Both the position numbers and the translations under genes were made by a program. Positions 8,760 through 64,000 of a stretch of DNA of 64,000 nt are shown here, one piece after another. The notes under the pieces were generated by a model that saw only the letters and a program-made list of their open reading frames with translations, made no database searches and had not been told where the DNA came from. Every line of letters starts with the position of its first letter. Positions within the stretch are counted from its first letter, which is position 1. This DNA is from Clostridia bacterium (GTDB lineage: Bacteria > Bacillota > Clostridia > Oscillospirales > SIG627), in assembly GCA_017414535.1 (NCBI GenBank), contig JAFQMA010000045.1, positions 3,054 to 67,053 on the forward strand, read 5' to 3'.

Positions 8760-8765
8760 GTTTAT

Positions 8766-48854: not shown

Positions 48855-49958
48855 TTATTTTAATACCTCGTCGCAGCGTTGCAGTGCGGCATCGATGACG
48901 GTGTCCATATCGTAGTATTTGTATTCGCCGAGGCGTCCGCCGAAGATCACGTTTTCTTCGCTTTCTGCCAGCTTCTTGTATTCACCGTAGAGAGCCGTGT
49001 TTTTCTCGTCGTTGATGGGGTAGTAAGGCTCGTCTCCAACCTTCCACTCCGAGGAGTATTCGCGACTGATGACGGTCTTTTCCTGTGTTCCGAATTCGAA
49101 CCATTTGTGCTCGATGATCCTGGTCCAGGGGGTCTCACGGTCGGTGTAGTTTACTGCGGCATTGCCCTGGAAGTTGGGGGTGTCCAGCACCTCGTTCTCA
49201 AAGCGAACGGAGCGGTATTGCAGAGCACCCAGCTGATAGTCGAAATACGCGTCGATGGCACCGGTGTACACCACCTTATCAGCCAGCGCATCAAGCTCAG
49301 CCTTGTTTTTCAGATAATCAACGCCCGTGCGGACCTCAATGCCCTCCAGCATATTTTCCACAAGCTTTGTGTAGCCGCCCATGGGAATGCCCTGGTAGAG
49401 TGCGTTGAAATAGTTGTTGTCAAAGGTCAGTCTCACGGGGAGACGCTTGATGATGGAAGCGGGAAGCTCCTTGCAATCTCTGCCCCACTGCTTTTCCGTG
49501 TAGCCCTTGACCAGCTTCTCGTAAATATCGGTTCCCACGAGAGAGATGGCCTGCTCCTCCAGATTTTTCGGCTCGGTAATGCCGGCGGCCTTTCTCTGCT
49601 CCTCGATCTTTTGTTCCGCCTCCTGAGGTGTCACAACACCCCACATCTTGTTAAAGGTGTACATGTTGAAGGGGAGGGAATAAAGCTCGCCTTTGTAATT
49701 GGCAACGGGCGCATTGGTAAAGCGGTTAAACTCAATAAAACGGGTGACGTATTCCCACACTCGCTTGTTGTTGGTATGGAAAATATGCGCGCCGTATACG
49801 TGCACGTTGATGCCCTCGATCTCTTTGGTGTAAACGTTTCCGGCAATGTGATCTCTCTTATCGATCACAAGGACCCTCTTGCCGATCTCTTTTGCTCTTT
49901 GAGCAAAGACGGCGCCGTAGAGACCTGCGCCCACTACCAGATAATCGTACTGCTTCAT
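48855..49958 (-). CDS. glf: UDP-galactopyranose mutase
   Basis: MKQYDYLVVGAGLYGAVFA...VLVIDKRDHIAGNVYT...VHVYGAHIFHT is the canonical Glf sequence. Confidence 0.95.
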   Translation of the reverse strand: MKQYDYLVVGAGLYGAVFAQRAKEIGKRVLVIDKRDHIAGNVYTKEIEGINVHVYGAHIFHTNNKRVWEYVTRFIEFNRFTNAPVANYKGELYSLPFNMYTFNKMWGVVTPQEAEQKIEEQRKAAGITEPKNLEEQAISLVGTDIYEKLVKGYTEKQWGRDCKELPASIIKRLPVRLTFDNNYFNALYQGIPMGGYTKLVENMLEGIEVRTGVDYLKNKAELDALADKVVYTGAIDAYFDYQLGALQYRSVRFENEVLDTPNFQGNAAVNYTDRETPWTRIIEHKWFEFGTQEKTVISREYSSEWKVGDEPYYPINDEKNTALYGEYKKLAESEENVIFGGRLGEYKYYDMDTVIDAALQRCDEVLK

Positions 49959-49967
49959 AAATACTCC

Positions 49968-50729
49968 TTAAACGCCCTTGTACTTCTTCAGGCCCATGAT
50001 GCCCCAACGAATCAGGTTGCAACCACTCTTAAATACGCCGAGCTTCAGATAATCGCGGTAGAAGCGCCACTGCTTTTTGATGAGCTTTTTCTTGTTACCC
50101 GTGGTAGAGTTGGCCAATACGCGGTATCTGGCCAAAAGCTTCTGATTGCCGTACGCCTTATCGTCCAGCTTTACGATATCAAGCCAGTAGGCATAGTCGT
50201 CGCGCATGCTCTTCAGCTCCTCGCGCAGATAGACCTTGCCGTGCTTTTCCAGATTGTAAAGACCGCTCAGACAGCCGATGTAGTTGGTCACCATCATATC
50301 CTTGGTGGTGATCTCGGGCTTGCAGATCACGGGATTTAAGATCTCTTCATCGTTTTCGTTGATACAGCGATAGGAGCAATATACGCAGGTTGCGTTCTTT
50401 TCCGTCATGAAGCGGACCTGCTCCTCCAAAAATTCCGGCTCCCACAGATCGTCCGCATCCAAAAGGGCGATATACTGGCCCTCTGCTCTGCGAATGCCGT
50501 TATTACGGGCGGCGGCGGAGCCTGCGTTCTCCTGCTGATAGAACTGAATGCGGCTGTCCTTCTCCACGTAGGAGCGGACCAGCTCGGCGGAACCGTCCTT
50601 GGAACCGTCGTCAATGATGATCATTTCCCAATCTCCATAGGTCTGTGCCAATACGGAGTCAATGGTGCGTGCAATGTATTTTTCACCGTTGTAGCAGGGA
50701 GTGATGATGGAAACAAGACCTTTTTTCAT
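49968..50729 (-). CDS. Family 2 glycosyltransferase
   Basis: VSIITPCYNGEKYIARTIDSVLAQTY.DWEMIIIDDGSKDGS and a DAD motif (LLDADD). Confidence 0.85.
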   Translation of the reverse strand: MKKGLVSIITPCYNGEKYIARTIDSVLAQTYGDWEMIIIDDGSKDGSAELVRSYVEKDSRIQFYQQENAGSAAARNNGIRRAEGQYIALLDADDLWEPEFLEEQVRFMTEKNATCVYCSYRCINENDEEILNPVICKPEITTKDMMVTNYIGCLSGLYNLEKHGKVYLREELKSMRDDYAYWLDIVKLDDKAYGNQKLLARYRVLANSTTGNKKKLIKKQWRFYRDYLKLGVFKSGCNLIRWGIMGLKKYKGV

Positions 50730-50752
50730 AAAAATCTCCTTGAAATGCGATA

Positions 50753-52174
50753 CTACTTGTCGTCTTTCTTGATTTCTTGATTCTCTTGAATTTGGTTTAG
50801 AAGCTCGCTCTTCTTCTTCTCGTTTTCCTCCGCTGCCTCCATACCCTCGGTGCTCTCCTTGGAGAAGATGATCTTAAAGGTGAGAATGATCAGCTTGATA
50901 TCAAGCAAAAGCGAGTAATTTTCAATGTACATCAGGTCAAAACGAAGCTTGTCGTAGGGAGTGGTATTGTACTTGCCGTAGACCTGTGCGTAGCCGGTCA
51001 GACCGCCCTTGACTTTGGTTCTGAAGGCGAATTCAGGCATTTCCTGACAGAACTGATCCACAAAGACGCGTCGCTCGGGACGGGGACCCACCACGGACAT
51101 ATCGCCCTTGAGAATGTTGATGATCTGGGGCAGCTCATCAAAGCGTGTGGCTCTTACGAAGCGACCTACCTTCGTGATGCGGGGATCGTTTTCGCCGGCA
51201 CTCCATACCGCACCGGTAAGCTTTTCCGCATTGGGGACCATGCTGCGGAATTTTAAGATCTCAAATTCCTTGTCGCCTACGGTCAGTCTTTTCTGCTTGT
51301 AGAAAACGGGGCCTCCGTCCTCCAGCTTAATGGCAATGGCGACTACCAGAAGAATAGGGGAGGCAAGGATGAGTGCAATCAGGCTGAGAACGATGTCCAT
51401 TGCGCGCTTTGCGATCCTCTGAGCCAGCGTCATGCCGCGCATGCTCAGGCACAAAAGGGGCGTGTCAAAAAGGTTTACCGCCTTGCCGCCACGCATCATA
51501 ATATCGGAGATCTTGGGCACAGCGTAGGTGCGGATGCCCTCGCTGTAGCAGAATTTCAAAAGGTTGTTGCGGATCTTGGGGGGCAGATCGTTCAGGATCA
51601 CCGCGTCGTAATTGCGGATCTCGGCACAGACGTTGTCAAAGCCCTCGTCAATACTCATGAGCTTTTTGACGTTGTATTTGTCCTTTCTGGTATCGAGCTT
51701 GAGCTTGATGCCAACGGCATTGTCCGAGCCGAAGATGAGGATCATGTTGTGGGGTGCATAAAACTTTTGATAAAACTTCTTGTAAACGTAGACCAAAACG
51801 CCTGCCATGACAAAATCGATCACTGTCAGCATCAGTATGGGTAGAACGGAGATCATGTGGTTTGCAATGAGACAAAGCTGGAAATAGGTCAAGCAGTTTA
51901 CGATGATCAGTGCCAGTGACTGCCCGATCAGCAGATCGGTAAATCTCTTCTGGTCAAAAAGGAAGCCGTCCAGATTGTTAAAGAGCAGAACGATCAGTAC
52001 GCCGTACACCCCGGCCAATACGTACTTTCCGTTAAAGAAATAATCCGGGAAGAGTCCGTCCTCATAGCCGTAGCGCCAAACAAAATAATAGAGAATGCAA
52101 AGGAGAACGACCTCCAGCGTGCATTCTATTCCTCGTAAAAGACCGCGGGAATCCGCGTGGGTTTTATTTTTCAA
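50753..52174 (-). CDS. Polytopic polyprenyl-phosphate glycosyl-1-phosphate transferase (WcaJ/CpsE/EpsE-type priming enzyme)
   Basis: N-terminal helices plus a C-terminal bacterial sugar transferase domain (KRAMDIVLSL..., KFRSM, DELPQIINILKGDMSVVGPRPE). TTG 52174 after AAGGAAGG is preferred over the track start at 52297. Confidence 0.85.
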   Translation of the reverse strand: MKNKTHADSRGLLRGIECTLEVVLLCILYYFVWRYGYEDGLFPDYFFNGKYVLAGVYGVLIVLLFNNLDGFLFDQKRFTDLLIGQSLALIIVNCLTYFQLCLIANHMISVLPILMLTVIDFVMAGVLVYVYKKFYQKFYAPHNMILIFGSDNAVGIKLKLDTRKDKYNVKKLMSIDEGFDNVCAEIRNYDAVILNDLPPKIRNNLLKFCYSEGIRTYAVPKISDIMMRGGKAVNLFDTPLLCLSMRGMTLAQRIAKRAMDIVLSLIALILASPILLVVAIAIKLEDGGPVFYKQKRLTVGDKEFEILKFRSMVPNAEKLTGAVWSAGENDPRITKVGRFVRATRFDELPQIINILKGDMSVVGPRPERRVFVDQFCQEMPEFAFRTKVKGGLTGYAQVYGKYNTTPYDKLRFDLMYIENYSLLLDIKLIILTFKIIFSKESTEGMEAAEENEKKKSELLNQIQENQEIKKDDK

Positions 52175-52435
52175 AACGCTTTCACCTTCCTTGCGTGCTC
52201 TGTCAAAGCAGAAAAAACGGTCGTGACCCGTTCCTAATGAACCGATCCTTTTGTAAAGCTTACTGACAATATACCACATTTTGGACGCTTCCGTCAACTC
52301 TTTTTGCGAAAACGGGCGCCAAATCGGAAAAAGCTTGTCAAAAAACAGAATAATGAGAGCAATGAATAGACGAAAGAATGAGGTGGAAAATATGACATAA
52401 GTTTTGCCAAACCATGTTTTTTTTAAAAATAACTA

Positions 52436-52464
52436 TTGTTTTAGCAGCCCGCTTATGTTATAAT
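52436..52464 (+). promoter_or_regulatory. sigma-A promoter of the plus-strand polysaccharide operon
   Basis: TTGTTT (52436-52441), a 17-nt spacer, then TGtTATAAT (52459-52464). It leaves a leader of about 100 nt. Confidence 0.45.
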
Positions 52465-52572
52465 GGAAGACAACAATGTAAAGATGGCGAAGTTTGGCCA
52501 TTGCCCTACGGCTCAGCATTCTGTGACAGGCCGACGGACACGGTGCTTCGCCGTAAAGCGTAAGGAGATCCT

Positions 52573-53700
52573 ATGAATAGCAAGCGTATCTTTCTTTCCA
52601 CTCCCACCATGCACGGGGAGGAAATGGGCTACATTAAAGAAGCTTTTGAAAAAAACTGGATCGCACCTCTTGGCTTTAATTGCGACGGCTTTGAGCAGGA
52701 GCTGGCCGCGTATCTTTCGGGAGAGGGCGATCCTCTTTATGCCCTGTCCCTGTCCTCCGGCACGGCGGCTCTTCACTTGGGTGTCAAGCTGGCGGGCGTA
52801 AAAAGGGGAGAGAAGGTGCTCTGCTCCGACATGACCTTCTCCGCCACCGTCAATCCCGTCACCTACGAGGGCGGCATCCCCGTCTTTATCGATGCCGAGC
52901 GGGACAGCTGGAACATGGATCCCGAAGCGCTGGAGGAGGCCTTCCGCAAGCATCCCGAGGCACGGGTGGTCATGCTGGCCCATCTCTACGGCACTCCTGC
53001 CAAAATGGACGAGCTTCTTGACGTGTGTCGCCGCCATAACGCCGTTCTGATCGAGGATGCGGCCGAGGCTCTTTCCGCTGCTTATCACGGACAAAAATGC
53101 GGCACCTTCGGTGACTATAATGCCATCAGCTTCAACGGCAATAAGATCATTACCACCTCCGGCGGAGGCATGCTTCTCACCGTCTCCAAGGAGGCTCGCG
53201 ATAAGGCCTTCTTTTGGGCCACCCAGTCCCGCGATCCCGCCCCTTGGTATCAGCACAGCGAGATCGGCTATAACTACCGTATGTCCAACGTCCTTGCGGG
53301 CATCGGCAGGGGACAGCTTCTGCATCTGGAGGAGCACCGTGACAGAAAAGAGGCCATCTATCGCCGCTATGAAAAAGCCTTTGCCGATCTTCCCGTTGCC
53401 ATGAACCCCGTCCTGCCCGATACCCGTGCCAATTTCTGGCTCTCGTGTCTGCTCATCGACGAAGGCGCGGGGGATCCCATGGCGCTCATGGAAAAGCTTG
53501 CCGCCGAGAATATTGAGGCACGCCCCATCTGGAAGCCCATGCACATGCAGCCCGTCTTTGCCCATTGCGATTTTGTCAGCACAGCCCCCGCTCCCGTCAA
53601 CGAGGATATCTTCCGCCGCGGCCTGTGCCTTCCCAGCGATATTAAAATGACCCCCGAGGAGCAGGATCGCGTCATCGATCTGATCCGTTCCTCCTTTTAA
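52573..53700 (+). CDS. DegT/DnrJ/EryC1/StrS-family PLP sugar aminotransferase (WcfR/PglE/EpsN-like)
   Basis: AAGGAG RBS. FLSTPTMHGEEMGYIKEAFEKNWIAPLG N-terminus. The PLP-lysine context is SFNGNKIITTSGGGML. Confidence 0.9.
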   Translation: MNSKRIFLSTPTMHGEEMGYIKEAFEKNWIAPLGFNCDGFEQELAAYLSGEGDPLYALSLSSGTAALHLGVKLAGVKRGEKVLCSDMTFSATVNPVTYEGGIPVFIDAERDSWNMDPEALEEAFRKHPEARVVMLAHLYGTPAKMDELLDVCRRHNAVLIEDAAEALSAAYHGQKCGTFGDYNAISFNGNKIITTSGGGMLLTVSKEARDKAFFWATQSRDPAPWYQHSEIGYNYRMSNVLAGIGRGQLLHLEEHRDRKEAIYRRYEKAFADLPVAMNPVLPDTRANFWLSCLLIDEGAGDPMALMEKLAAENIEARPIWKPMHMQPVFAHCDFVSTAPAPVNEDIFRRGLCLPSDIKMTPEEQDRVIDLIRSSF

Positions 53701-53709
53701 GGAGCCCTT

Positions 53710-54381
53710 ATGTACCGAAGGTTTGCAAAACGTATTCTTGACTTTTTGATCGCCCTTTGCGCACTGACCGTCCTGTCTCCCATCCTTTTGATCCTGACCG
53801 TGACGGGCGCCGTCGCCATGGGGGGCAATCCCTTCTTCACTCAGCTCCGCCCCGGCAGGATCGATCGTAAAACGGGAGAAGAAAAAATTTTCCGTATGAT
53901 CAAATTCAGAACGATGTCCAACAAGAAAGATGAGAACGGAAAGCTTTTGCCCGACATGAAGCGTCTTACGAAATACGGGAGATTTCTTCGTTCCTCCTCT
54001 CTTGACGAGCTTCCCGAGCTGATCAATATCCTGAAGGGAGATATGTCCATCGTCGGTCCGAGACCGCTTTTGGTCAAATATCTACCTCTGTATTCGGAGC
54101 GACAGCGACATCGTCACGATGTCAGACCCGGCCTGACGGGTCTTGCTCAAGCTCACGGAAGAAACAACAACACATGGGACGAGATTTTCCTTATGGATCT
54201 TTCTTACGTGGAGAATATTACCTTTTGCACCGACTTGAGGATTATATTTGATACCGTGCTTGCCGTGCTGAGAAAAAAGGATATTGATTCGGGTGAAACC
54301 GAAGAATATACGAGACGGGAGTTTACGGGTTCGGAGAGTGTAACGGATGAAAACACCCTATTTTCTGATCAACGAAGCTGA
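53710..54381 (+). CDS. Small monotopic phosphoglycosyl transferase (PglC/WcfS/EpsL-like)
   Basis: KRILDFLIALCALTVLSPILL re-entrant helix, ...KFRTM..., and DELPELINILKGDMSIVGPRPLL. Confidence 0.85.
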   Translation: MYRRFAKRILDFLIALCALTVLSPILLILTVTGAVAMGGNPFFTQLRPGRIDRKTGEEKIFRMIKFRTMSNKKDENGKLLPDMKRLTKYGRFLRSSSLDELPELINILKGDMSIVGPRPLLVKYLPLYSERQRHRHDVRPGLTGLAQAHGRNNNTWDEIFLMDLSYVENITFCTDLRIIFDTVLAVLRKKDIDSGETEEYTRREFTGSESVTDENTLFSDQRS

Positions 54382-55531
54382 GATAAACAAAAACGTTAAC
54401 GAGTTCAAGGCTGCCTTGAAGAAATACTGGAGCAATTCTGTGCTTGCTTATTCCGTAAAAACCAATTCGTTGCCTTGGATACTGGAATACATGAACAAAA
54501 GCGCGGTGTTTGCCGAGGTAGTTTCCGACGAGGAATACCAACTGGCAATCAAATGCGGCTTCTCGGACGATAGGATCGTGTTCAACGGCCCTATTAAGGG
54601 AGAGGAGTATTTTCTTCGCGCGATCGAGAAGCGTGCCGTCGTTAATATCGATTCGGAAAAGGAGCTTGAATGTTTAAGCAAGAATGAAAAAGTGAAGCTG
54701 TCTGAGATCGGTATCCGTCTCAACGTGGATATCGGCGTTTTCCCCGAAGGTGACGTTGACTACCGTGAGGATGGCTTCCGCTTTGGCTTTAGCCACGAAG
54801 CCTGTGGCTTGAAGCGCGCCTTGGACCGTATTCGTCAAATCAACGAAAACTGCAGGATCGGTCTTCATCTCCATTGCAACAGCATAACGAGAAGTCTTGA
54901 CGTTTATCGCAGTATCTCAAAATACACCGCCATGATCGTGGAGACCTACGGCTTAACACCTTCTTATATCGACGTGGGCGGAGGCTTTTTCGGCGGTGTG
55001 GCGGGCAAGCCCACGGCGGAGGAATATATTTCCGTCATCGCTCAAGAGCTTTCGCGGGTCGTTGATCCGAAGGAAACAAGGCTGATCATTGAGCCCGGCT
55101 CCGCTATGATAGGCTCTGCCGTAGATCTGCATTCCTCGGTGCTTGACGTGAAAAGCAATAACCGTTCCCGCATCATTACTACGGATGCCAGCAGGATCCT
55201 CATCGATCCTCTTTGGAAAAAGTCCCGTTACTTTTATTCAGTGAATGGCGATCCCGACGGTGCTGTTGAGGAAAAGCAGATCGTTTGCGGCTATACCTGC
55301 ATGGATTTTGACCGCATCATGGTCTTGAAGGATCAAAGGGCGTTGTCTGTAGGCGACAAGATCGTCTATCACAAGGTTGGCGCCTATACCATGACCTTTG
55401 GCGGGCCCTTCATCCGTTATTATCCCGCAGTTTACGTAAAAAGCGGTACCGAGATCAAAAAGGTACGGCAAAGAATGTCGGTTGACAGTTATTATTCCAT
55501 TCATAAAACGGAGGAAGAAAATGAGCATTGA
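54347..55531 (+). CDS. Fold-type III PLP-dependent decarboxylase (Orn/DAP/Arg decarboxylase family)
   Basis: TPYFLINEAEINKNV..., YSVKTN (PLP-Lys), VVSDEEYQLAIKCGF..IVFNGP.K, NIDSEKELE, and a C-terminal CGYTCMDFD. The start overlaps the upstream gene by 35 nt. Confidence 0.8.
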   Translation: MKTPYFLINEAEINKNVNEFKAALKKYWSNSVLAYSVKTNSLPWILEYMNKSAVFAEVVSDEEYQLAIKCGFSDDRIVFNGPIKGEEYFLRAIEKRAVVNIDSEKELECLSKNEKVKLSEIGIRLNVDIGVFPEGDVDYREDGFRFGFSHEACGLKRALDRIRQINENCRIGLHLHCNSITRSLDVYRSISKYTAMIVETYGLTPSYIDVGGGFFGGVAGKPTAEEYISVIAQELSRVVDPKETRLIIEPGSAMIGSAVDLHSSVLDVKSNNRSRIITTDASRILIDPLWKKSRYFYSVNGDPDGAVEEKQIVCGYTCMDFDRIMVLKDQRALSVGDKIVYHKVGAYTMTFGGPFIRYYPAVYVKSGTEIKKVRQRMSVDSYYSIHKTEEENEH

Positions 55532-56549: not shown

Positions 56550-56567
56550 TTCATCGGAGGATGTTGA

Positions 56568-57530
56568 ATGAATATACTGTTTTGCAGTGCGGGAAGACGG
56601 GCACAACTGCTGAAAAACTTCAGACGATCCATGGGAAATGAGGGAAAGATCGTTGCGACGGACCTTTCTCCCTATGCTCCCGCTCTGTATTTTGCAGATC
56701 GCCATTATTTGGTTCCCAGAATTGACGATCCGACTTACGTTGACGTTATTTTAAATATCTGCAAGGAAGAAGAAATCGACGCAATCACGACAGTGATCGA
56801 TCCGGAAATTGAGATACTATCCGAAAATCGCTCAAGATTTGAGGCGCTCGGTATCACGGTCCTTGCCCCGTACGATTCCTCCGCACGGCTTTGCTTTGAT
56901 AAGTTCGCCCTATACGAGCATTTGACAAGCTGTGGGATCCCTACGGTTCTGACCTTCGGAGATATGGATACCTTCCTTGAGGCTTACCGTGAGAAGAAAA
57001 TCGACTTTCCCGTGTTTGTCAAACCGAGAAACGGAAGCGGAAGCGTCGGTGCAAGAAGGGTCGGAGGCATGTCCGAGCTTGCGGCTGCAATGGAAGCGGA
57101 TCCGACGCTGATCATTCAGGAATACATGCAAGGACAGGATCTTGATGCAGACGTTTATATCGATACGGTATCCAAAAGGGTTGTATCTGCCTTTACGAAG
57201 AGAAAACTGTCCACCACCATCGGCGGTGCCAATAAAACCGTATCCTTTAAGGATCCAAAGCTTTTCGATCTGATCTCGGAAGCGCTGACACACTTTCAGT
57301 TCAACGGCCCGATCGATATCGACTTTTTCGAAAAGGACGGAGCCTATTATCTTTCTGAGATCAATCCTCGCTTCGGCGGAGCGTATCTGCATGCGTACGG
57401 AGCAGGCGTTGATTTTGTAAAGCTGATCGAGAATAACGTCAAGGGGATCGCCAACGAGCCGAGCATCGGCAACTACGAGGAAAAGGTCGTTATGATGATG
57501 TATGACGATGTGGTCATCATCAAGGAATAG
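56568..57530 (+). CDS. ATP-grasp ligase (carbamoyl-phosphate-synthase-L-like fold)
   Basis: MNILFCSAGRRAQLLKNFR... N-terminus, ...DKFALYEHL...PVFVKPRNGSGSVG...IIQEYM.GQDLDADVY...EINPRFGG, which is typical of polysaccharide-locus ATP-grasp enzymes. Confidence 0.8.
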   Translation: MNILFCSAGRRAQLLKNFRRSMGNEGKIVATDLSPYAPALYFADRHYLVPRIDDPTYVDVILNICKEEEIDAITTVIDPEIEILSENRSRFEALGITVLAPYDSSARLCFDKFALYEHLTSCGIPTVLTFGDMDTFLEAYREKKIDFPVFVKPRNGSGSVGARRVGGMSELAAAMEADPTLIIQEYMQGQDLDADVYIDTVSKRVVSAFTKRKLSTTIGGANKTVSFKDPKLFDLISEALTHFQFNGPIDIDFFEKDGAYYLSEINPRFGGAYLHAYGAGVDFVKLIENNVKGIANEPSIGNYEEKVVMMMYDDVVIIKE

Positions 57531-57560
57531 GCCTCCCCTTGAAAATAAAAAAAGGAAGTG

Positions 57561-58769
57561 ATGAGGATCAATATTCTGTTTTTGTCTCTTTTGGATTTCA
57601 ATTCCTTGGAGGAGCACAATATTTATACGGATCTGTTACGGATCTTCCGAAAAAACGGAGACTCGCTCTATATCGTTTCCCCTGTGGAAAGACGAAAAAA
57701 ACAGTCCACTCGCCTCATAAAGAGTGAAAATACGTCTATTTTAAAGCTCCGTTGCGGCAACATCCAAAAAACGAACCTCATTGAGAAGGGAATCTCCACG
57801 TTAACGGTGGAGCAGATCGTAAAAAACGGGATCAAAAAGTATTTTTTTGATGTAAAATTCGATCTGGTACTGTACACCACCCCGCCCATTACCTTTGCAG
57901 GGGTGATCTCCTATATCAAAAAGAGGGACGGTGCGAAAAGCTACCTGCTCTTAAAGGATATTTTCCCCCAAAACGCCGTGGATATCGGTATGATGTCAAA
58001 AAGCGGTCCCAAGGGCCTGCTCTACCGCTATTTCCGCCGTAAGGAGAAAAAGCTTTACGCCCTTTCCGATTTTATCGGCTGTATGTCTCAGGCCAATGTG
58101 GACTTTGTTTTGCGCCATAATCCCGAGCTTTCACCGGAAAAGGTACACGTCAGCCCCAACAGCATGGAGCTTCGCTCCTTTGAGGCAGGGGAGAGGGAGG
58201 CCATTCGCGAGAAATACGGCATCCCCCAAAGCGTCACCGCCTTCATTTACGGCGGTAATCTCGGAAAGCCTCAGGGCATCTCCCATTTGGTGGCCTGCCT
58301 TCGCGCCATGAAGGATCGAAAGGACGTGTTCTTCGCCGTTTGCGGCACGGGTACCCATTTTTCCTTGCTGAAGGAGTTTGCGGAACAGGAACAGCCTGCC
58401 AATCTCCTTTTGCTGAACGGCCTGCCCAAGGAGGAGTACGAAGCCTTTGTCAAGGCCTTTGACGTAGGCCTGATCTTCTTGGATCACCGCTTTACCATTC
58501 CCAATTTCCCCAGCCGCTTGCTTTCTTATATGCAGGCAAAAATGCCTGTCATCGCCTGTACCGATCCCAATACGGATATCGGTCGCGTCATCGAGGCGGG
58601 GGGCTTCGGCTGGTGGTGCGAAAGCAATGACCCCGCTCGGTTTACCGCTTGCGTGGATAAGGCTCTTGCCGCTCCTCTTGCCGAGCTCGGCGAAAAGGGC
58701 TATGAATACTTAAAAGAAAACTATACGGTAGAGCAAAGCTACCGCATCATTATGGAGAGATTGAGTTGA
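57561..58769 (+). CDS. Family 4 glycosyltransferase (WbuB-like)
   Basis: INILFLSLLDFNSLEEHNIYTDLLRIF..NGDSLYIVSPVERR...IEKGISTL is a WbuB-type N-terminus. There is a GT-B C-terminal domain. Confidence 0.8.
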   Translation: MRINILFLSLLDFNSLEEHNIYTDLLRIFRKNGDSLYIVSPVERRKKQSTRLIKSENTSILKLRCGNIQKTNLIEKGISTLTVEQIVKNGIKKYFFDVKFDLVLYTTPPITFAGVISYIKKRDGAKSYLLLKDIFPQNAVDIGMMSKSGPKGLLYRYFRRKEKKLYALSDFIGCMSQANVDFVLRHNPELSPEKVHVSPNSMELRSFEAGEREAIREKYGIPQSVTAFIYGGNLGKPQGISHLVACLRAMKDRKDVFFAVCGTGTHFSLLKEFAEQEQPANLLLLNGLPKEEYEAFVKAFDVGLIFLDHRFTIPNFPSRLLSYMQAKMPVIACTDPNTDIGRVIEAGGFGWWCESNDPARFTACVDKALAAPLAELGEKGYEYLKENYTVEQSYRIIMERLS

Positions 58770-59986
58770 AAAACGTGGAGAAGGTATTGTTTCTTGGGGG
58801 GCTTTTTCCTAAGGAAACAGAAAAAGAGATTGTGGATCATTCCATAGGCAGCGTGCAAAACGCCGCCAACGTTCTTCAATGGAATCTGGTGCGCGGCTTA
58901 GATGAAAATCTGCCCGTTCCCGTAAAGATCTTAAACTCTCTTTACATAGGCTCTTGGCCGCAGCGCTACAAAAAGGCGGTGATACCGTCTTACGAGTTTT
59001 CTCACGCGCCCGGTGCCAAGGATCGAAACGTGGGCTTCTGGAATATTACCTTTTTTAAGCAGCTTTTTCGGTCCTCCACGCTCTCCCGTGCCGTCAAGCG
59101 GGAGTTGGCCGCAGAGCCGAATCAGAGCAGTGCCGTCATCGCTTATGCCATGACCCGCCCCATGCTCCGCGCCCTGCGCGCCGCCAAACGGTGCGATCCC
59201 CGCGTGACCACCTGCCTTGTGATTCCCGATCTTCCTGAGTTTATGAATGCGGGGACCAAGCGCTCTGTTTTGGAGCGATTTCTGAAAGCACGCGACATGA
59301 AGACCCAGCGAAGGGATCTGGCCTTCGTGGACTGTCTCGTAGTACTTACCGAGCCCATGATGGAAAAGCTCCCCGCCAAGCCATACGTTGTGATGGAGGG
59401 CATTGCAGGTGCTGTGCCTGCGGATGAAGTGCTCCCTCGCCGCGAAAAGACCGTGGTCTATACGGGCGGACTGAACGCCTCGTACGGTGTGGTGGATCTG
59501 GTGGAGGCCTTCCGTGCCATTCCCGATCCCGATTATCGCCTGATTCTTTGCGGAGCAGGCGATGCGGTGGACACCATTCGCCGCGCCGCCGAAGAGGATC
59601 CGCGTATCGATTTCCGTGGCCTCGTTCCTCACGGGGAGATCCGCGCCATCCAGCAAAGCGCTGCCGTGCTGGTGAATCCACGTACCCCTGCAGGTGAATT
59701 TACCCGCTACAGCTTTCCCTCCAAAAATCTGGAGTATATGGCCAGCGGCACGCCCACCGTTGCTCACCGTCTCCCCGGCATTCCGTCGGAATACGAGGGG
59801 CATCTCGTCTTTATTCCCGAGCCCACCGTGGCTTCTCTGAAGGAGACCATTATGAAGGTATGCTCTCTTTCTCCCGAGGAAAGCCTCCTTTTGGGCGAAA
59901 GGGCAAAGACCTTTGTTTCCCGCGAAAAAAATGCCGCCCGTCAGGCACAAAAAATCTTGGACCTGATGCGGAGCGTTTCACAATAA
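58766..59986 (+). CDS. GT-B fold glycosyltransferase (GT4/GT1 family)
   Basis: The TTG start overlaps the upstream stop. The C-terminal motif is VLVNPR....FTRYSFPSKNLEYMASGTPTV (E-x7-E-like). Confidence 0.8.
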   Translation: MKNVEKVLFLGGLFPKETEKEIVDHSIGSVQNAANVLQWNLVRGLDENLPVPVKILNSLYIGSWPQRYKKAVIPSYEFSHAPGAKDRNVGFWNITFFKQLFRSSTLSRAVKRELAAEPNQSSAVIAYAMTRPMLRALRAAKRCDPRVTTCLVIPDLPEFMNAGTKRSVLERFLKARDMKTQRRDLAFVDCLVVLTEPMMEKLPAKPYVVMEGIAGAVPADEVLPRREKTVVYTGGLNASYGVVDLVEAFRAIPDPDYRLILCGAGDAVDTIRRAAEEDPRIDFRGLVPHGEIRAIQQSAAVLVNPRTPAGEFTRYSFPSKNLEYMASGTPTVAHRLPGIPSEYEGHLVFIPEPTVASLKETIMKVCSLSPEESLLLGERAKTFVSREKNAARQAQKILDLMRSVSQ

Positions 59987-60046
59987 ATTGCATACCGTTT
60001 TTCCGCCTGCCAAAGCGGATCTTCGGTGATAGGAAAGGATCCTTTC

Positions 60047-61354
60047 ATGTCCCAATTCAAACCCAAATCCGGCATTGAAAGGGAAACGCGCTTTAAGTTC
60101 GTTGACCTTCTCTTTTTGATCTGCCTTCTTTGGTTCGATCTCGGTGTCGTCGGTGCCGTTTCCTTTTATCGTGCCGCGGCTAACGTGGTGTTGTTTGCCA
60201 TTGCCGCCTTTCTTGCTTGCAGCACCGATCATAAGATCCTTCCGAGGCTTTCCTCTGTCGGCTTTTTCTGGGGGGTGGCCTATTTATTGATGATCACCTT
60301 GCCCAGCTTCTTCTCGGGCCGTGGGCTCAGTCTGGACTTTTGGAATACGCTCTACGCGTTAATGATCCTGTTTGCCTTTCTGTACTTTAGCAATCGTACC
60401 CGCTTCGTACAAAAGATCGTTTTCTGGGTCATCCTCCTGGATCAGATCCTCATCAATATCCGTTCGTACTTTTTGATGCTGGAGCAGCCGAATCTGGCTC
60501 GCTATCTGGCTACGGGAAAGATCGGTGAATTTGTGAATGCGGGGGAACTGGACACCTTCCTTCTGTGCTCCTTCGATCACGTGTACGCGCTGGTGTTGAT
60601 CCTACCCTTTTTGATCCTTTACTGGAAGGACGCCAAGGAAAACGGCTTGAAGAGTCAAAAACAGATTCCCTTTATCGTTTTAACGGTCGTGTATTTCATT
60701 AGCTCCGTTTTCGTGGTTGCGGCGGCCTCTTTTACGACGGCTATTTTGTTTATGGTCTTCTTTCTGATCTGCGCACTGTTTTCCTCCAAGACCAATGCGG
60801 TCGCAACGTCGTTGACCACGATAGTCTTTGCCGTATTGCTTTTAGTTTTTGCCGTTCCCGTGCTGGAATTTATTTCGGAAAATTTCTTTGCGGATAATTT
60901 TGAGGTACAGGCCCGTTTGACCGAGCTTGCCCGTCTCTTCGGCGGTGACGACCGCGGCATGAGCGGTGATTTCGGTAGCCGCATGGCAAGACTTACCCAA
61001 AGCTGGGAGGCCTTTGCTGAAAACCCCTTCTTCGGTATATTTGAAGGGGAATACGATGAGATCGAGGACGTGATCGGTAATCACTCCGAATGGGTGGATG
61101 GCCTTGCCAAATACGGCGTGTTCCGCTTTGCTACTTTCGTGACCTTCCTCGTTACCTCCCTGCGAGGTGTGTACCGCACCCGTCGCACTCCCTCAGCGAT
61201 CTTTTTGATCTACCTTCTTTTGATCGTCCTCGGCTTCCTCAATCCCATTTTGTGGCAAAAGACCTATCTTGCCCTCTTTATCCTGATTCCGCTGATGCTC
61301 CCACCCCGAATAAGCAGTGAAGAGGAGGCCGCCCTTGAAGATCCTGCACGTTAA
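60047..61354 (+). CDS. wzy: Wzy-type O-antigen/EPS polymerase (O-antigen ligase-like membrane protein)
   Basis: ATG 60047 follows AGGAAAGGA. There are about 10-12 helices and a large late loop containing ...GNHSEWVDGLAKYGVFRF... Confidence 0.7.
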   Translation: MSQFKPKSGIERETRFKFVDLLFLICLLWFDLGVVGAVSFYRAAANVVLFAIAAFLACSTDHKILPRLSSVGFFWGVAYLLMITLPSFFSGRGLSLDFWNTLYALMILFAFLYFSNRTRFVQKIVFWVILLDQILINIRSYFLMLEQPNLARYLATGKIGEFVNAGELDTFLLCSFDHVYALVLILPFLILYWKDAKENGLKSQKQIPFIVLTVVYFISSVFVVAAASFTTAILFMVFFLICALFSSKTNAVATSLTTIVFAVLLLVFAVPVLEFISENFFADNFEVQARLTELARLFGGDDRGMSGDFGSRMARLTQSWEAFAENPFFGIFEGEYDEIEDVIGNHSEWVDGLAKYGVFRFATFVTFLVTSLRGVYRTRRTPSAIFLIYLLLIVLGFLNPILWQKTYLALFILIPLMLPPRISSEEEAALEDPAR

Positions 61355-62561
61355 CTGCCTTGATACGGGCAGTACGGGAAAGATCATTTCCTCCATATCT
61401 CGCTTCATGGCATTGGAAAAGCATGAAAGCGTGCTTTGTGCCGCTACCTGCCTTGGCGAGGAAAAAAGCTTTCTCAAGTGTTATCGAACCAGCCTTCCCA
61501 AGGAACAGGGCATTTACCGCCGTATCAGCTTCCTTTTGGGCTTGCGCTATGGCTTCGCACCTTTTTCCACGCGACGCATTCTTCGCATCATAAAAAACGA
61601 AAGACCCGACGTGGTCCATCTTCATTCCATAAACTGCAACATGGTGAATATTTACGCGCTTCTTCGTTTTTTGAAGCACAGAAGCATTCCCACCGTTGTG
61701 ACGAATCATGCGGAATTTCTTTATACGGGCTCCTGCTCCCACGCCGGTGAATGTACCGGATTTTTGGCAAACTGCGGCAACTGCCCTCACTTGTTCGAAG
61801 CCGCGGAGTCCAAACTCTTTGACCGCACCGCCACCGCCCATGAGAAAATGAAGATCGCCTTTGACGGCTTTGACCGTCTTGCCATCGTTTCCGTTTCTCC
61901 TTGGGTGAAGGAGCGAGCATCGGCTTCTTCCATCATGAAGTCTCTTTCCCACCGCGTGATACTCAATGGCGTGGATACGGACGTGTTTTGCCCCCGAAGC
62001 GCAAAATACTCGGACGAGCACTACGGCATCCCCGCAGGGGCTAAGGTGGTCTTTCACGCAACGGCAAGCTTTACCGATCGCAAGGGAGATCCCAAGGGGG
62101 GAGAGCACGTGCTGGCAATGGCACGGCGCTTTGCCTCGCAAAACGTCGTTTTCCTTGTGGCAGGACGGCACAGCATTTCCAATGAATTGCCGAAAAACGT
62201 GCGATTGCTTGGTGAGATTCGCGATCAGGAGGAGCTGGCGGGCTTATATAGCCGTGCCGATCTGACGCTTGTCACAAGCTTTAGGGAAACCTTTTCCATG
62301 CCCGTGGCAGAGAGCCTTTGTTGCGGAACGCCCGTGGTGGGTTTTTGCGCAGGCGGACCCGAAAGCATTGCCCTTTCTGCTTTTTCGGCCTTCTGTCCCT
62401 TCGGTGACGAAGAGGCATTGTACGGGCTGACGGAGTCTTGGCTTCCTTTTAAAAGTACGGATCGCGCCGGGAGTATTGTCTCTGCTGCCGTAGAGTACTA
62501 TTCCTCCGAACGCATGGCGAAGGAGTATTACGAGCTTTATCAAAGCCTGAAAAAGGAATAA
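61335..62561 (+). CDS. GT-B fold glycosyltransferase (GT4 family)
   Basis: TTG 61335 sits 7 nt after GAGGAGG and is preferred over GTG 61317. KILHVNCLDTGSTGKI N-terminus. ...LVTSFRETFSMPVAESLCCGTPVVG is a GT4 motif. Confidence 0.75.
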   Translation: MKILHVNCLDTGSTGKIISSISRFMALEKHESVLCAATCLGEEKSFLKCYRTSLPKEQGIYRRISFLLGLRYGFAPFSTRRILRIIKNERPDVVHLHSINCNMVNIYALLRFLKHRSIPTVVTNHAEFLYTGSCSHAGECTGFLANCGNCPHLFEAAESKLFDRTATAHEKMKIAFDGFDRLAIVSVSPWVKERASASSIMKSLSHRVILNGVDTDVFCPRSAKYSDEHYGIPAGAKVVFHATASFTDRKGDPKGGEHVLAMARRFASQNVVFLVAGRHSISNELPKNVRLLGEIRDQEELAGLYSRADLTLVTSFRETFSMPVAESLCCGTPVVGFCAGGPESIALSAFSAFCPFGDEEALYGLTESWLPFKSTDRAGSIVSAAVEYYSSERMAKEYYELYQSLKKE

Positions 62562-62563
62562 AC

Positions 62564-63601
62564 ATGAATATTGGATTGATTACTTTTCATTGGGCAACCA
62601 ACCACGGTGCCATCCTCCAGACTTGGGCCACCGTGCGGTATTTGGAATCCTTGGGGCATAAGGTGTCCGTGATCGATTATTATCCGCCCGCCCTAAAGAC
62701 TTCGCTCAAAAGTGCCCTTCGTCCCTCAAGACACTGGCTTTCCCAATGGAAAACCTGGCGCAAGGAAAAGAAACTGGCCGTCTTTCGTGATCGACTCCCC
62801 TTGACGGAGCACTTCTCGTCCTTAAATGAATTAGGGCACGCCTCCCTTTCCTTTGACGCTGTTCTTTGCGGAAGCGATCAGATCTGGAATTATCATTTTC
62901 TTACAAGAGGAGAAGGAAGACCCACCCCCGCCTATTTCTTACCTTTTGTTCCCGATGAAACGAAAAAAATTGCGCTGGCGGTCAGCTTTGGCTGTGAGAG
63001 CTATCCCGAAAATGCCGCCGCCTTGGCCGCTCCCTTGATCGATCGGTTTTTCCGTGTAAGCGTACGAGAAAAAAGCGGCCTATCCATTTTAAGATCCATG
63101 GGGCAAAGCGGTGTTTTGGTTGCCGACCCCGTCAGCCTGATCCCCGCGGGGGATCTGAAACAATTTTGTTGTTGTGAGGCACCGTCTTCCTTCACCGCAA
63201 CTTGCATTTTAAGAAGTCAGCCCAAAGCGGTCAAACGGCGCATTCGCGCCCTGCTCCGTCGAGAGGGGCATCCCGTGCGGGATCTTTCCCTCCTTTCTAT
63301 GGAGGACTGGATAAGCGGGATTTGCCATGCCGAAACGGTGGTTACCAATTCCTTCCATTGCACGCTGATGTGCTTAAAGCTTCATACCCCCTTCTACGTT
63401 TTAACCGAGGAGGGAGCCCTTTCCGGCATGAATGACCGTTTGGTTTCTTTGCTTTCACGGTTCGGTCTGACGGATCGCATCGTTTCCTCCGATTCCATGC
63501 CCACGCCCTCTCCCATTTTCTGGGAGGCGGTGGATGAGGCTATGGAGCAGTACAGTGCCACTTTAAAGAACTTTATTCACGAGGCATTGATGAATGAATA
63601 A
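62564..63601 (+). CDS. Polysaccharide pyruvyl transferase family protein
   Basis: The N-terminus MNIGLITFHWATNHGAILQTWATVRYLESLGHKVSVIDYYP is characteristic of the family. SFHCTLMCL lies near the C-terminus. Confidence 0.85.
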   Translation: MNIGLITFHWATNHGAILQTWATVRYLESLGHKVSVIDYYPPALKTSLKSALRPSRHWLSQWKTWRKEKKLAVFRDRLPLTEHFSSLNELGHASLSFDAVLCGSDQIWNYHFLTRGEGRPTPAYFLPFVPDETKKIALAVSFGCESYPENAAALAAPLIDRFFRVSVREKSGLSILRSMGQSGVLVADPVSLIPAGDLKQFCCCEAPSSFTATCILRSQPKAVKRRIRALLRREGHPVRDLSLLSMEDWISGICHAETVVTNSFHCTLMCLKLHTPFYVLTEEGALSGMNDRLVSLLSRFGLTDRIVSSDSMPTPSPIFWEAVDEAMEQYSATLKNFIHEALMNE

Positions 63602-64000
63602 GTACAAAAAGCTGTTTGGTAATTCGTTGATCTTTACCGTTGCCTCCTTTGGAAGCAAGATTTTATCGTTCTTGTTCGTTCGGTTTTACACCGAACTGCT
63701 TTCCGTAGAAGAATACGGTATTATTGACGTTTTTACCACCACCTCCGGCCTTCTGTATCCCTTCCTGACCCTTAGCATCGTGGAGGCGGTGCTCCGCTTT
63801 TCCATTGATGACGAGGAAAACCGAAAAAAGACCTTTTCCTTAGGCTTTTTCACCGTCCTCGGCGGTAATCTGCTGTTGCTTTTCGCTTTGCCGCTTTTTG
63901 GCTTGAGTGAGATCTTCCGAGAGCACGCGATCATGCTGTTCTTCATTTCCTTTACCTCGGCCATGAACGTGATCTTTTCACACTTTTCCAGAGGATTGGG
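63594..64000 (+). CDS. wzx: Wzx-type oligosaccharide flippase (MOP superfamily), 3' end beyond the window
   Basis: ATG 63594 overlaps the upstream stop. MNKYKKLFGNSLIFTVASFGSKILSFLFVRFYTELLSVEEYGIIDVF is a typical flippase N-terminus. The frame stays open to the window end. Confidence 0.8.
   Translation, partial: MNKYKKLFGNSLIFTVASFGSKILSFLFVRFYTELLSVEEYGIIDVFTTTSGLLYPFLTLSIVEAVLRFSIDDEENRKKTFSLGFFTVLGGNLLLLFALPLFGLSEIFREHAIMLFFISFTSAMNVIFSHFSRGL

Follow-up and report, generated by a model that had tools for sequence, protein, structure and literature searches.

An ATP-grasp ligase gene takes the place of the sugar acetyltransferase gene in a pyruvylated polysaccharide locus of a gut Clostridia bacterium

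The gut Clostridia bacterium studied here builds a surface polysaccharide that bears pyruvate and starts with a rare 4-amino sugar, which raises the question of what becomes of the 4-amine. An initial annotation proposed that it stays free, as in the AATGal of Bacteroides fragilis polysaccharide A (PSA). A screen that uses the wcfR/wcfS pair to predict zwitterionic polysaccharides exists, as that annotation had stated, with hits that are biochemically unvalidated according to its own authors (PMC10167101). We analyzed the locus in the window (the whole stretch of 64,000 nucleotides) and in the sequence that follows it, and our results support an operon of the Wzx/Wzy type whose product is a pyruvylated heteropolysaccharide and in which a PglC-like priming phosphoglycosyl transferase (PGT) is paired with a PglE/WcfR-family aminotransferase (Table 1). 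The main operon comprises 17 genes on the plus strand and extends ~6.7 kb beyond the window, ending at approximately window-equivalent position 70750, with a divergent large-PGT/GT2/Glf trio upstream. The small PGT gene is separated from the first GT4 gene by genes encoding a PLP decarboxylase, a GalE-like SDR and an ATP-grasp ligase, and these three are decisive for how the locus is read.

Table 1. Genes of the polysaccharide locus and the stand-alone dehydratase gene, with the matches and motifs behind each assignment.
Feature	Position	Strand	Basis
CapD/PglF-type UDP-GlcNAc 4,6-dehydratase, membrane-anchored, stand-alone	23531-25408	+	PF02719 5e-123; TDK...MGASK (TDK...MxxxK) motif
Glf (UDP-galactopyranose mutase), last of divergent trio	48855-49958	-	TIGR00031 423 bits, cut-off 304; PF03275 6e-84
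GT2 glycosyltransferase, TuaG-like	49968-50729	-	PF00535 4e-42; NF047683 218 bits, under cut-off
Large WbaP/WcaJ-type polyprenyl-phosphate hexose-1-phosphate transferase, second priming enzyme	50753-52297	-	TIGR03025 330 bits, cut-off 296; PF02397 3e-64
PglE/LegC-family sugar 4-aminotransferase (DegT), main operon gene 1	52573-53700	+	PF01041 1e-89; LegC family 327 bits, under cut-off; SFNGNK lysine motif; best solved relative C. jejuni PglE 1O61/4ZTC, E 4e-82
Small monotopic PglC-like phosphoglycosyl transferase	53710-54381	+	PF02397 2e-55; C. concisus PglC 8G1N E 1e-60, full length
Fold-III (Orn/DAP/Arg family) PLP decarboxylase, specialised	54347-55531	+	PF02784 2e-26
GalE-like extended SDR	55521-56549	+	PF01370 8e-28
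ATP-grasp carboxylate-amine ligase	56568-57530	+	NF009406 454 bits, cut-off 271; PDB 2PN1 E 2e-79
GT4 glycosyltransferase, WcaI-like	57558-58769	+	PF00534 4e-12; NF007640 88 bits
GT4 glycosyltransferase	58766-59986	+	PF13692 8e-16
Wzy-like polymerase, weak match	60026-61354	+	PF04932 2e-07, 31.4 bits vs cut-off 31.7
GT4 glycosyltransferase	61317-62561	+	PF13439 3e-14; PF00534 1e-12
Polysaccharide pyruvyl transferase	62564-63601	+	PF04230 1e-30, 108 bits
Wzx flippase, N-terminal part inside window	63594-64000, gene to ~65003 window-equivalent	+	PF01943 on full 469-aa ORF (L001)
Downstream Fnl set	past 64000	+	FnlA 509 bits; WbcJ-type reductase 354 bits; WecB-type 2-epimerase 204 bits

Family profiles matched the Glf, DegT, small PGT and pyruvyl transferase genes where the initial annotation had placed them; the Wzx start was likewise confirmed, and the Wzy call is a weak match just under the cut-off. 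Its five glycosyltransferases come down to four Leloir enzymes (one GT2, three GT4), and its otherwise accurate gene list had omitted the second, large PGT. Past position 64000, the main operon continues with Wzx, an FrhB/FdhB-like Fe-S protein, and FnlA/CapE-type, NTP_transf_5, FnlB/CapF-type and FnlC/CapG-type genes. Given the FnlA/B/C-type genes downstream of Wzx, the repeat unit probably also contains an L-FucNAc-type sugar. The initial annotation had combined galactofuranose (Galf), a pyruvylated sugar and a 4-amino sugar in one repeat. The last two are supported, but Galf in the same unit is uncertain, because Glf, although present, lies outside the main operon in the divergent unit, which brings its own large PGT, and none of the 88 related loci contains a Glf gene.

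The UDP-GlcNAc 4,6-dehydratase that had been assigned to the pathway from 27 kb upstream is borne out by its profile match and by a motif typical of PglF-type enzymes (motif table in PMC8987622). Its neighbours are unrelated, a ZIP transporter among them, and it is the sole such gene in the genome apart from the FnlA type. The CapD genes that related loci carry directly 5' of DegT are 50-56% identical to it, and the 4-keto sugar is probably provided in trans by this enzyme.

As the initial annotation had observed, the locus contains no acetyltransferase gene of the LbH or GNAT type, a result that holds to the end of the contig, 11.7 kb beyond the window; nor did any protein in the genome (86% complete) match the PglD/NeuD family above the cut-off. 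Five hexapeptide proteins are encoded in the genome, all outside the locus. The one whose context was inspected, on contig C27, has a neighbourhood unrelated to the polysaccharide module, and the remainder look like housekeeping types from their sequences. An acetyltransferase may lie on a contig missing from the 86%-complete assembly.

The ATP-grasp gene occupies the slot that belongs to the PglD/EpsM acetyltransferase in bacillosamine-type modules. We compared 68 homologous loci that have 4 kb or more of upstream sequence. A small PGT gene adjoins the ATP-grasp gene in 61 of them, with the latter directly after it; DegT is present in 47, and 36 have a CapD-type gene. The commonest order is CapD-DegT-PGT-ATP-grasp. 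These loci span five phyla (Bacillota, Bacteroidota, Spirochaetota, Actinomycetota and Chloroflexota), and the ExNxR and Lys motifs of the ligase are invariant (alignment A1). The step from a missing acetyltransferase to a free, PSA-like 4-amine fails at this point. Neisseria PglB2, a PGT/ATP-grasp fusion, makes the glyceramido sugar GATDH (PMC11130364), and in the Pat/Pyl pathway of Bacillus cereus an ATP-grasp enzyme acylates a sugar 4-amine, with 2-oxoglutarate as the reported acid (as outlined in PMC11626204 and PMC8987622). Together with the position of the gene, these precedents suggest that the 4-amine is probably acylated by the ATP-grasp enzyme, an outcome that the initial annotation had itself named as contrary to its model and that, by analogy, now appears the more likely one.

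The decarboxylase belongs to the same PGT/ATP-grasp module. It is found in 23 of the 68 loci, the window's own included, nearly always directly 5' of the ATP-grasp gene, and the five-gene order of the window recurs in Sporosarcina and in one MAG each of Clostridiaceae, Spirochaetaceae and Ruminococcus. One locus (L104) carries a natural PGT-decarboxylase fusion followed by ATP-grasp, and in another (L112), between ATP-grasp and NeuB, a distant relative of the decarboxylase forms a fusion with a CMP-sugar cytidylyltransferase. The enzyme retains the catalytic Lys, HxH, GGG, EPG and Cys motifs, with CES changed to CMD, like FslC. Assignment as LysA was rejected, since the 131-bit score falls short of the 298-bit cut-off and IDPLW stands in place of the DAP-binding RPxLY; the true lysA, on contig C21, scores 417 bits. 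For two pairs of an ATP-grasp enzyme with a decarboxylase of the Orn/DAP/Arg family, ligation followed by decarboxylation has been demonstrated: BtrJ/BtrK convert tethered Glu to 4-aminobutyrate, and CtaD/CtaF tethered Asp to beta-Ala, free Asp being no substrate (PMC7183216).

By analogy, the 4-amine of the first sugar may be ligated by the ATP-grasp enzyme to an amino acid, which is then decarboxylated to an omega-aminoacyl arm, a tentative reading to which we assign a probability of about 0.45. UDP-GlcNAc would be dehydrated by the stand-alone PglF/CapD-type enzyme and aminated at C4 by the PglE-like DegT enzyme, after which the ligase would acylate the 4-amine with a carboxylic acid at the expense of ATP. 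The acid would most likely be a dicarboxylic amino acid (Glu or Asp) bound via its side-chain carboxylate; once tethered, it would lose its alpha-carboxylate to the fold-III decarboxylase, giving a 4-aminobutanoyl- or beta-alanyl-type arm that ends in a primary amine. The regiochemistry of the Pyl product reportedly matches side-chain attachment. The PglC-like transferase would load the finished sugar onto undecaprenyl phosphate, and the three GT4 enzymes, pyruvyl transferase, Wzx and Wzy would complete, flip and polymerise the unit, its L-FucNAc-type sugar coming from the downstream FnlA/B/C-type genes. Amino sugars that carry a 4-aminobutanoyl or beta-alanyl group are, however, not known from any polysaccharide, a point against this pathway. 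In the ATP-grasp tree, decarboxylase presence switches at least 11 times, and sister ligases occur with and without it (the window versus L023; L041 versus L047), a scatter consistent with a single acid that the ligases share and that is tailored after ligation in some loci only. The acylation step is read from synteny and from analogy to Pyl and PglB2, and two further points count against the pathway as drawn: 2-oxoglutarate, the acid of Pyl, would need prior amination before a PLP decarboxylase could act, and BtrJ and CtaD load a carrier-protein thiol, whereas a sugar amine is proposed here.

The SDR is tied to the decarboxylase in the loci sampled, accompanying it in all 10 that carry an SDR and being absent from all 45 that lack a decarboxylase, but it has no step in the proposed chemistry, which also counts against that pathway. 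More distant relatives adjoin DegT and PGT genes without a decarboxylase. The SDR contains the GATGNLG and YAIAK motifs; a role as a 4,6-dehydratase was rejected, the [ST]DE motif being missing. Its AlphaFold model (pLDDT 85) is closest to UDP-sugar 4-epimerases/decarboxylases (TM 0.7-0.79, ~20% identity), a predicted fold of nucleotide-sugar epimerases and oxidoreductases. An Arg just after beta-strand 2 is invariant and, by a general SDR rule, may point to the use of NADP(H) and to a role as a reductase.

Such a role would suit another reading, which we regard as unlikely, in which the ligase couples the 4-amine to 2-oxoglutarate or to a different keto or hydroxy acid, reduction by the SDR yields a 2-hydroxyacyl group and the decarboxylase acts in a different step. 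An extra negative charge on the sugar would then make the polymer anionic rather than zwitterionic. Besides being the acid reported for Pyl in the accounts cited above, 2-oxoglutarate is a by-product of the DegT reaction, and the hydroxyglutaryl-FucNAc4N polymer of B. cereus offers a model for the arm. In locus L019, which carries the closest ATP-grasp homologue with known gene context (74% identity), the flanking genes encode an HpcH/HpaI aldolase and a 2-hydroxyacid dehydrogenase, which fit keto-acid arms reduced afterwards. This chemistry, however, leaves the decarboxylase without a role, although its gene lies between those for the PGT and the ATP-grasp enzyme in 23 loci and one locus has it fused to the PGT. 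The reading also sits poorly with the absence of the SDR wherever the decarboxylase is absent and with fold neighbours that are nucleotide-sugar enzymes, not 2-hydroxyacid dehydrogenases.

The model of the initial annotation, with an unsubstituted 4-amine on an AATGal- or bacillosamine-type sugar, is in our view improbable, and would have the decarboxylase, SDR and ligase decorate the polymer elsewhere, for example by producing an amine and using it to amidate a pyruvate-ketal or uronate carboxylate. The glucuronamide ligase of C. jejuni HS:2 is reportedly a precedent for such amidation. Campylobacter has ATP-grasp amidoligases that act on capsule uronates (covered in part by PMC11800379), the locus does encode a pyruvyl transferase, and the locus yielded no acetyltransferase and the genome none of PglD type. 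Across the homologous loci, however, the ligase tracks the small PGT and DegT and not pyruvyl transferases (weak matches, in three loci only). No uronic-acid gene is found in the window's locus; among the loci with gene tables examined, Ugd occurs only in that of Mogibacterium (L022) and beside the L104 fusion, and fusions of the PGT, in one case with ATP-grasp and in another with the decarboxylase, link these two enzymes to the priming sugar. A thiotemplated route like those of butirosin and closthioamide, in which the ligase would load Glu or Asp on a carrier such as the ACP at 45649-45879 for decarboxylation as a thioester and transfer of the omega-aminoacyl group to the sugar by a transacylase, is very improbable: both characterised pairs do work on carrier proteins (PMC7183216) and an orphan acyl-AMP ligase and the stand-alone ACP lie ~7 kb upstream, but no ACP homologue was found in the 88 related loci (best match E 0.26), the PP-binding family is absent from the gene tables examined among them, and the locus has no BtrH/CtaG-type transacylase.

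If the ligation and decarboxylation of an amino acid take place as proposed, decarboxylation should provide the acyl arm with a primary amine, so a positive charge is possible. The zwitterionic polymer predicted by the initial annotation may in that sense survive, although by a route unlike that of PSA, with the charge coming from a decarboxylated amino-acid arm.

Among known systems, the UDP-yelosamine pathway of B. cereus ATCC 14579 (Hwang et al., 2014, PMID 25368324, as described in PMC11626204 and PMC8987622) is likewise encoded in a Firmicute locus, and in those descriptions runs from UDP-GlcNAc through a 4-keto-6-deoxy sugar (4,6-dehydratase) and a 4-amino sugar (Pat aminotransferase) to acylation by Pyl without an acetyl-CoA transferase, with a PglC-like small PGT adjoining the pathway genes. 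The window's locus, in contrast, adds a decarboxylase and an SDR between PGT and ligase, so a different acyl arm is expected, and its dehydratase is of the membrane PglF/CapD type and 27 kb away; Pyl is likened here by description. In Neisseria PglB2, an ATP-grasp domain similarly stands in for the acetyltransferase that otherwise partners the PGT, and alters the N-acyl group on a bacillosamine-type 4-amine, giving glyceramido-acetamido-trideoxyhexose in place of diNAcBac (PMC11130364), but it is a fusion protein of protein O-glycosylation in a proteobacterium, with glycerate as the acid and no decarboxylase partner. BtrJ/BtrK and CtaD/CtaF pair the same two enzyme families, tethering the side-chain carboxylate and decarboxylating afterwards (PMC7183216); they act on carrier-protein thiols in antibiotic pathways, whereas the nucleophile here would be a nucleotide-sugar amine. 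The PSA locus (WcfR/WcfS, WcfO, WcfM) resembles the window's in gene type, with an aminotransferase beside a small PGT, a pyruvyl transferase, Glf, Wzx and Wzy, and a dehydratase encoded outside the locus. It lacks the ATP-grasp, decarboxylase and SDR genes, the 4-amine of AATGal being free, and the window's locus has in addition a second PGT, L-FucNAc-type genes and the FrhB-like protein. The diNAcBac modules PglF/E/D/C of Campylobacter and EpsC/N/M/L of Bacillus subtilis share a closely related dehydratase, aminotransferase and small PGT, but the locus described here is without the PglD/EpsM acetyltransferase and carries the ATP-grasp ligase at its position.

The source assembly (1.49 Mb in 57 contigs, estimated to be 86% complete) carries the window at C26:3054-67053. 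Every gene that the initial annotation had placed in a polysaccharide locus was recovered at its position, whereas its count of five glycosyltransferases is revised to one GT2 and three GT4 enzymes, besides a second, large phosphoglycosyl transferase (PGT) of the WbaP/WcaJ type. The window also holds the start of Wzx and a weakly matching Wzy-like protein. When the contig is read beyond the window, the plus-strand operon packs 17 genes closely together between 52573 and about window-equivalent position 70750, and continues, in order, with the rest of Wzx, an FrhB/FdhB-like Fe-S protein, an FnlA/CapE-type enzyme, an NTP_transf_5 protein, an FnlB/CapF-type enzyme and an FnlC/CapG-type enzyme.

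Genes of the locus and related functions, with the evidence for each assignment
Feature	Position	Strand	Evidence or context
UDP-galactopyranose mutase (Glf)	48855-49958	-	TIGR00031, 423 bits, above cut-off
DegT aminotransferase	52573-53700	+	best solved relative C. jejuni PglE, E 4e-82
Small monotopic PGT	53710-54381	+	full-length match to C. concisus PglC, E 1e-60
Fold-III PLP decarboxylase	54347-55531	+	between small PGT and first GT4
GalE-like SDR	55521-56549	+	between small PGT and first GT4
ATP-grasp ligase	56568-57530	+	NCBIfam NF009406, 454 bits, above cut-off; PDB 2PN1, E 2e-79
Pyruvyl transferase	62564-63601	+	PF04230, 1e-30
Membrane PglF/CapD-type dehydratase	23531-25408	+	TDK...MxxxK motif
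FnlA/CapE-type dehydratase/epimerase	beyond window	+	509 bits
FnlB/CapF-type reductase	beyond window	+	354 bits
FnlC/CapG-type 2-epimerase	beyond window	+	204 bits

A Wzx/Wzy polymer that is pyruvylated and primed by an amino sugar is well supported, and because the operon carries FnlA/FnlB/FnlC-type genes downstream, the polymer probably also contains an L-FucNAc-type sugar. That galactofuranose (Galf) shares a repeat unit with the amino sugar is not secure, because Glf is the last of three genes in a divergent unit, after a large PGT and a GT2, and was found near none of the 88 related loci described below. A GerA germination gene elsewhere in the genome fits a spore-former. An aldo/keto reductase fused to a 4Fe-4S dicluster domain (window 47640-48818, +) adjoins Glf in convergent orientation. 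In L001, the stretch of the same contig that runs past the window end, the gene of the FrhB/FdhB-like 4Fe-4S protein (8026-9177; C26:68025-69176) directly follows those of the pyruvyl transferase and Wzx; that it carries out another redox step on this group, such as reduction to a 1-carboxyethyl ether of the pyruvyl moiety, is speculation. The 413-aa NTP_transf_5 nucleotidyltransferase (L001 10164-11405; PF14907 at 2e-45), between the FnlA-type and FnlB-type genes for L-FucNAc, has no match among NCBIfam models.

The absence of an acetyltransferase from the locus, on which the initial annotation built its free-amine reading, was borne out: between 48855 and the end of the contig, positions beyond 64000 included, there is no gene for an LbH or GNAT protein. 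Across the whole 86%-complete genome, the best match to the PglD/NeuD family (TIGR03570) reaches 64 bits where the cut-off is 161, an absence to be read with the missing 14% in mind. The genome encodes five hexapeptide-repeat proteins, all on contigs other than that of the locus. As hidden acetyltransferases these were set aside, since four appear housekeeping-like by sequence (maltose-O-acetyltransferase, gamma-carbonic-anhydrase, GlmU-like and CysE types) and the fifth lies outside any glycan locus. This last is an orphan acyltransferase of 234 aa (C27:14784-15503, -, on another contig), flanked on one side by a MATE transporter and on the other by a PlsC-type acyltransferase; as the sole LbH protein of the genome without an obvious housekeeping match, it is a conceivable if unlikely amino-sugar N-acetyltransferase.

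The place of the acetyltransferase is taken by an ATP-grasp ligase with intact motifs, which belongs to a very large family (5,453 relatives at E <= 1e-30). We sampled 88 loci (80 named genomic loci and eight from metagenome contigs), located homologues of the window's genes in each, and restricted synteny counts to the 68 loci having at least 4 kb upstream of the ATP-grasp gene. The small PGT adjoins the ligase in 61 of the 68, mostly ending right at its start, while DegT (the PglE-like 4-aminotransferase) occurs in 47 and a CapD-type dehydratase in 36. The commonest arrangement, CapD-DegT-PGT-ATP-grasp, is a bacillosamine module in which the ligase replaces PglD/EpsM. Their taxonomic range takes in Lachnospiraceae, Oscillospiraceae, Butyrivibrio, Blautia producta, Prevotella, Bacteroides, Muribaculaceae and Treponema, together with one Atopobiaceae and one Chloroflexota genome. 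From this conserved context, the ATP-grasp enzyme probably acylates the 4-amine of the sugar. The ligase family is absent from all 19 same-genus genomes sampled, and G+C dips to 0.46-0.48 across 54-58 kb (decarboxylase-SDR-ATP-grasp-GT4) against about 0.53 for the window; the cassette was therefore probably acquired horizontally. We also observed that the closest ATP-grasp homologue with genomic context (74% identity; L019 2034-4978, a locus from elsewhere) lacks the decarboxylase; the genes after it encode an HpcH/HpaI aldolase and a 2-hydroxyacid dehydrogenase, which may be an alternative accessory set that makes or reduces a keto-acid arm.

The second distinguishing gene of the cassette encodes a fold-III PLP-dependent decarboxylase. 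It is not the housekeeping LysA: it scores 131 bits against the LysA cut-off of 298, and a true lysA (417 bits) is found on a separate contig, C21. The PLP lysine and the HxH, GGG, EPG and catalytic Cys motifs are retained, but IDPLW replaces the DAP-binding RPxLY of DAP decarboxylases and CMD, much as in the N-citrylornithine decarboxylase FslC, replaces their CES. About a third of the loci (23/68) carry it, nearly always directly upstream of the ATP-grasp gene, in gut and rumen Bacillota, Bacteroidota and spirochaetes. Sporosarcina sp. BP05, in which a pyruvyl transferase lies downstream of the five-gene set, has the window's exact order DegT-PGT-decarboxylase-SDR-ATP-grasp, as does one MAG each of Clostridiaceae, Spirochaetaceae and Ruminococcus; in Bacteroidota loci the order is SDR-PGT-decarboxylase-ATP-grasp.

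The decarboxylase belongs to the amino-sugar module, and two gene fusions connect it with amino sugars carried on a nucleotide or a lipid, not with free amino acids. In a metagenomic locus (L104 697-2583), a small Bac_transf PGT is fused to the decarboxylase (628 aa); an ATP-grasp gene that overlaps the fusion gene comes next, and then a GT2 and a UDP-glucose dehydrogenase. In two Clostridia genomes (G373 and G134; L112 1417-3345, -), a more distant decarboxylase homologue (38% identity) is joined to a CMP-sugar cytidylyltransferase (PF02348) in one protein of 642 aa, encoded between ATP-grasp and NeuB genes, which suggests that the same ligase/decarboxylase chemistry acts on a nonulosonic acid. 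The latter fusion came to light in an unbiased survey of 399 Clostridia species genomes, in which the SDR was found in six and the decarboxylase in three, both being so rare that the survey has little statistical power. Mapped onto a tree of the ATP-grasp enzymes, the decarboxylase changes between present and absent at least 11 times, and some sister ligases differ in whether they have it. The ligases that go with a decarboxylase form no clade of their own, which would have pointed to a different acid; the scattered distribution fits one common acid with optional tailoring after ligation. In a Mogibacterium sp. locus (L022 6937-12162), two consecutive decarboxylase and ATP-grasp pairs flank the small PGT, the second ATP-grasp being only 25% identical to that of the window; this locus may build two different arms or a dipeptide-like arm. 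A literature search returned no description of a decarboxylase-equipped cassette in polysaccharide or glycan loci. As far as that search shows, the decarboxylase-equipped module, though widespread, has not been described from glycan loci; the ATP-grasp substitution itself is already known chemistry.

The GalE-like SDR encoded between the decarboxylase and the ligase has GATGNLG and YAIAK motifs. The dehydratase [ST]DE motif is absent, which rules it out as the missing soluble 4,6-dehydratase (Pdeg-like). Foldseek searches with its AlphaFold model (pLDDT 85) returned generic UDP-sugar 4-epimerases and decarboxylases only, at about 20% identity, a match too general to single out a function. Among the ATP-grasp loci sampled, the SDR is accompanied by the decarboxylase in all ten of its occurrences. 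A DegT-PGT-SDR-ATP-grasp order is seen in genome G349 (L106 2526-2931), with an SDR 72% identical to the window's and, between it and the PGT, no more than a 78-aa remnant of the decarboxylase; loss of the decarboxylase is thus compatible with retention of the SDR. More distant SDR relatives lie beside DegT and PGT genes alone. The sugar ring may be its target, or it may serve to reduce an arm derived from a keto acid.

For a PLP enzyme to decarboxylate an amino acid, the alpha-amine must be free, and the product carries a primary amine. Because of this requirement, and because the sugar supplies the nucleophilic amine, a tethered substrate would have to be an amino acid with two carboxylates, attached by the one in its side chain. 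In our best model, built on synteny and analogy, the ATP-grasp enzyme would join Glu or Asp to the 4-amino sugar via the side-chain carboxylate, and the decarboxylase would then remove the alpha-carboxylate on the nucleotide- or lipid-linked sugar. The predicted product is an N-(omega-aminoacyl) 4-amino sugar (4-aminobutanoyl or beta-alanyl), its 4-amine capped and its flexible arm ending in a new primary amine. The side-chain linkage would have the same regiochemistry as the product of Pyl from the Bacillus cereus UDP-yelosamine pathway (Pat/Pyl), which is said to be a 5-yl amide; that pathway reportedly leads to a hydroxyglutaryl polymer. An order of tethering first and decarboxylating second is established for two pairs of an ATP-grasp enzyme and an Orn/DAP/Arg-family decarboxylase: BtrJ/BtrK convert carrier-bound Glu to 4-aminobutyrate, and CtaD/CtaF convert carrier-bound Asp to beta-alanine, CtaF refusing free Asp (PMC7183216). 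We put at roughly one in three the probability that the decarboxylase-bearing Pyl-type module is an undescribed charge-switch cassette, in which decarboxylation of a Glu or Asp arm yields a cationic arm that, with the pyruvate ketal, makes the polymer zwitterionic.

The ligase could instead use 2-oxoglutarate, the acid reported for Pyl (PMC11626204, PMC8987622), in which case the arm would be acidic; as this leaves the decarboxylase with no explained role, we regard it as rather unlikely. Less probable still is the free, PSA-like AATGal amine proposed in the initial annotation, given that a ligase syntenic with the small PGT occupies the acetyltransferase slot and that PglB2 and Pyl acylate the 4-amine.

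PSA and other zwitterionic capsules are sought after for immunomodulation, and gut genomes are screened for them by a wcfR-like aminotransferase gene beside a wcfS-like transferase gene. This signature is insufficient alone, as an ATP-grasp family of more than 5,000 members (E <= 1e-30) is often encoded in the same module, and optional partner enzymes would set the arm as acidic or basic. If the charge-switch reading is true, such screens lump together free, anionic-acylated and cationic-acylated amino sugars, and the polysaccharide would be zwitterionic by a route unrelated to free AATGal. An omega-amino arm would give commensals a second, widespread means of placing positive charge on a polysaccharide. 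Cultured carriers exist, such as the Sporosarcina strain with the same five-gene order. The decarboxylase variant is also carried by Prevotella disiens, P. amnii and Hallella bergensis, and a module that lacks the decarboxylase by Blautia producta DSM 2950 and Butyrivibrio hungatei.

A close known relative in organization is the Pat/Pyl module, whose genes lie directly upstream of a small PGT (PMC11626204); work on this pathway is also cited in PMC8987622. [quoted passage not shown] In the published sequence-similarity network of monotopic PGTs, UDP-yelosamine is the predicted substrate of cluster 24, and FucNAc4N is the substrate in clusters 6 and 10. Neisseria PglB2, a PGT-ATP-grasp fusion, yields the glyceramido sugar GATDH rather than diNAcBac (PMC11130364). 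With BtrJ/BtrK and CtaD/CtaF the locus shares an adjacent ATP-grasp enzyme and Orn/DAP/Arg-family decarboxylase, the latter with intact catalytic residues and distinct from LysA. Those systems differ in their dedicated carrier protein (PCP/ACP), which this operon does not encode; homologues of an ACP encoded some 7 kb upstream are absent from the 88 related loci. The diNAcBac modules (PglFEDC/EpsCNML) differ in their PglD/EpsM-type LbH N-acetyltransferase, which was not found here. With the PSA locus are shared a pyruvyl transferase as the source of negative charge and a 4-aminotransferase next to the small PGT (a gap of 9 nt, the likeness of the pair being measured against PglE/PglC rather than WcfR/WcfS). 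The PSA type is further defined by an axial (galacto) 4-amine, chemically demonstrated to be free, a stereochemistry that likeness to PglE does not by itself reveal. The two kinds of locus part over the 4-amine: a PSA-type locus has no enzyme able to cap it, whereas here an ATP-grasp ligase sits in the acetyltransferase slot.
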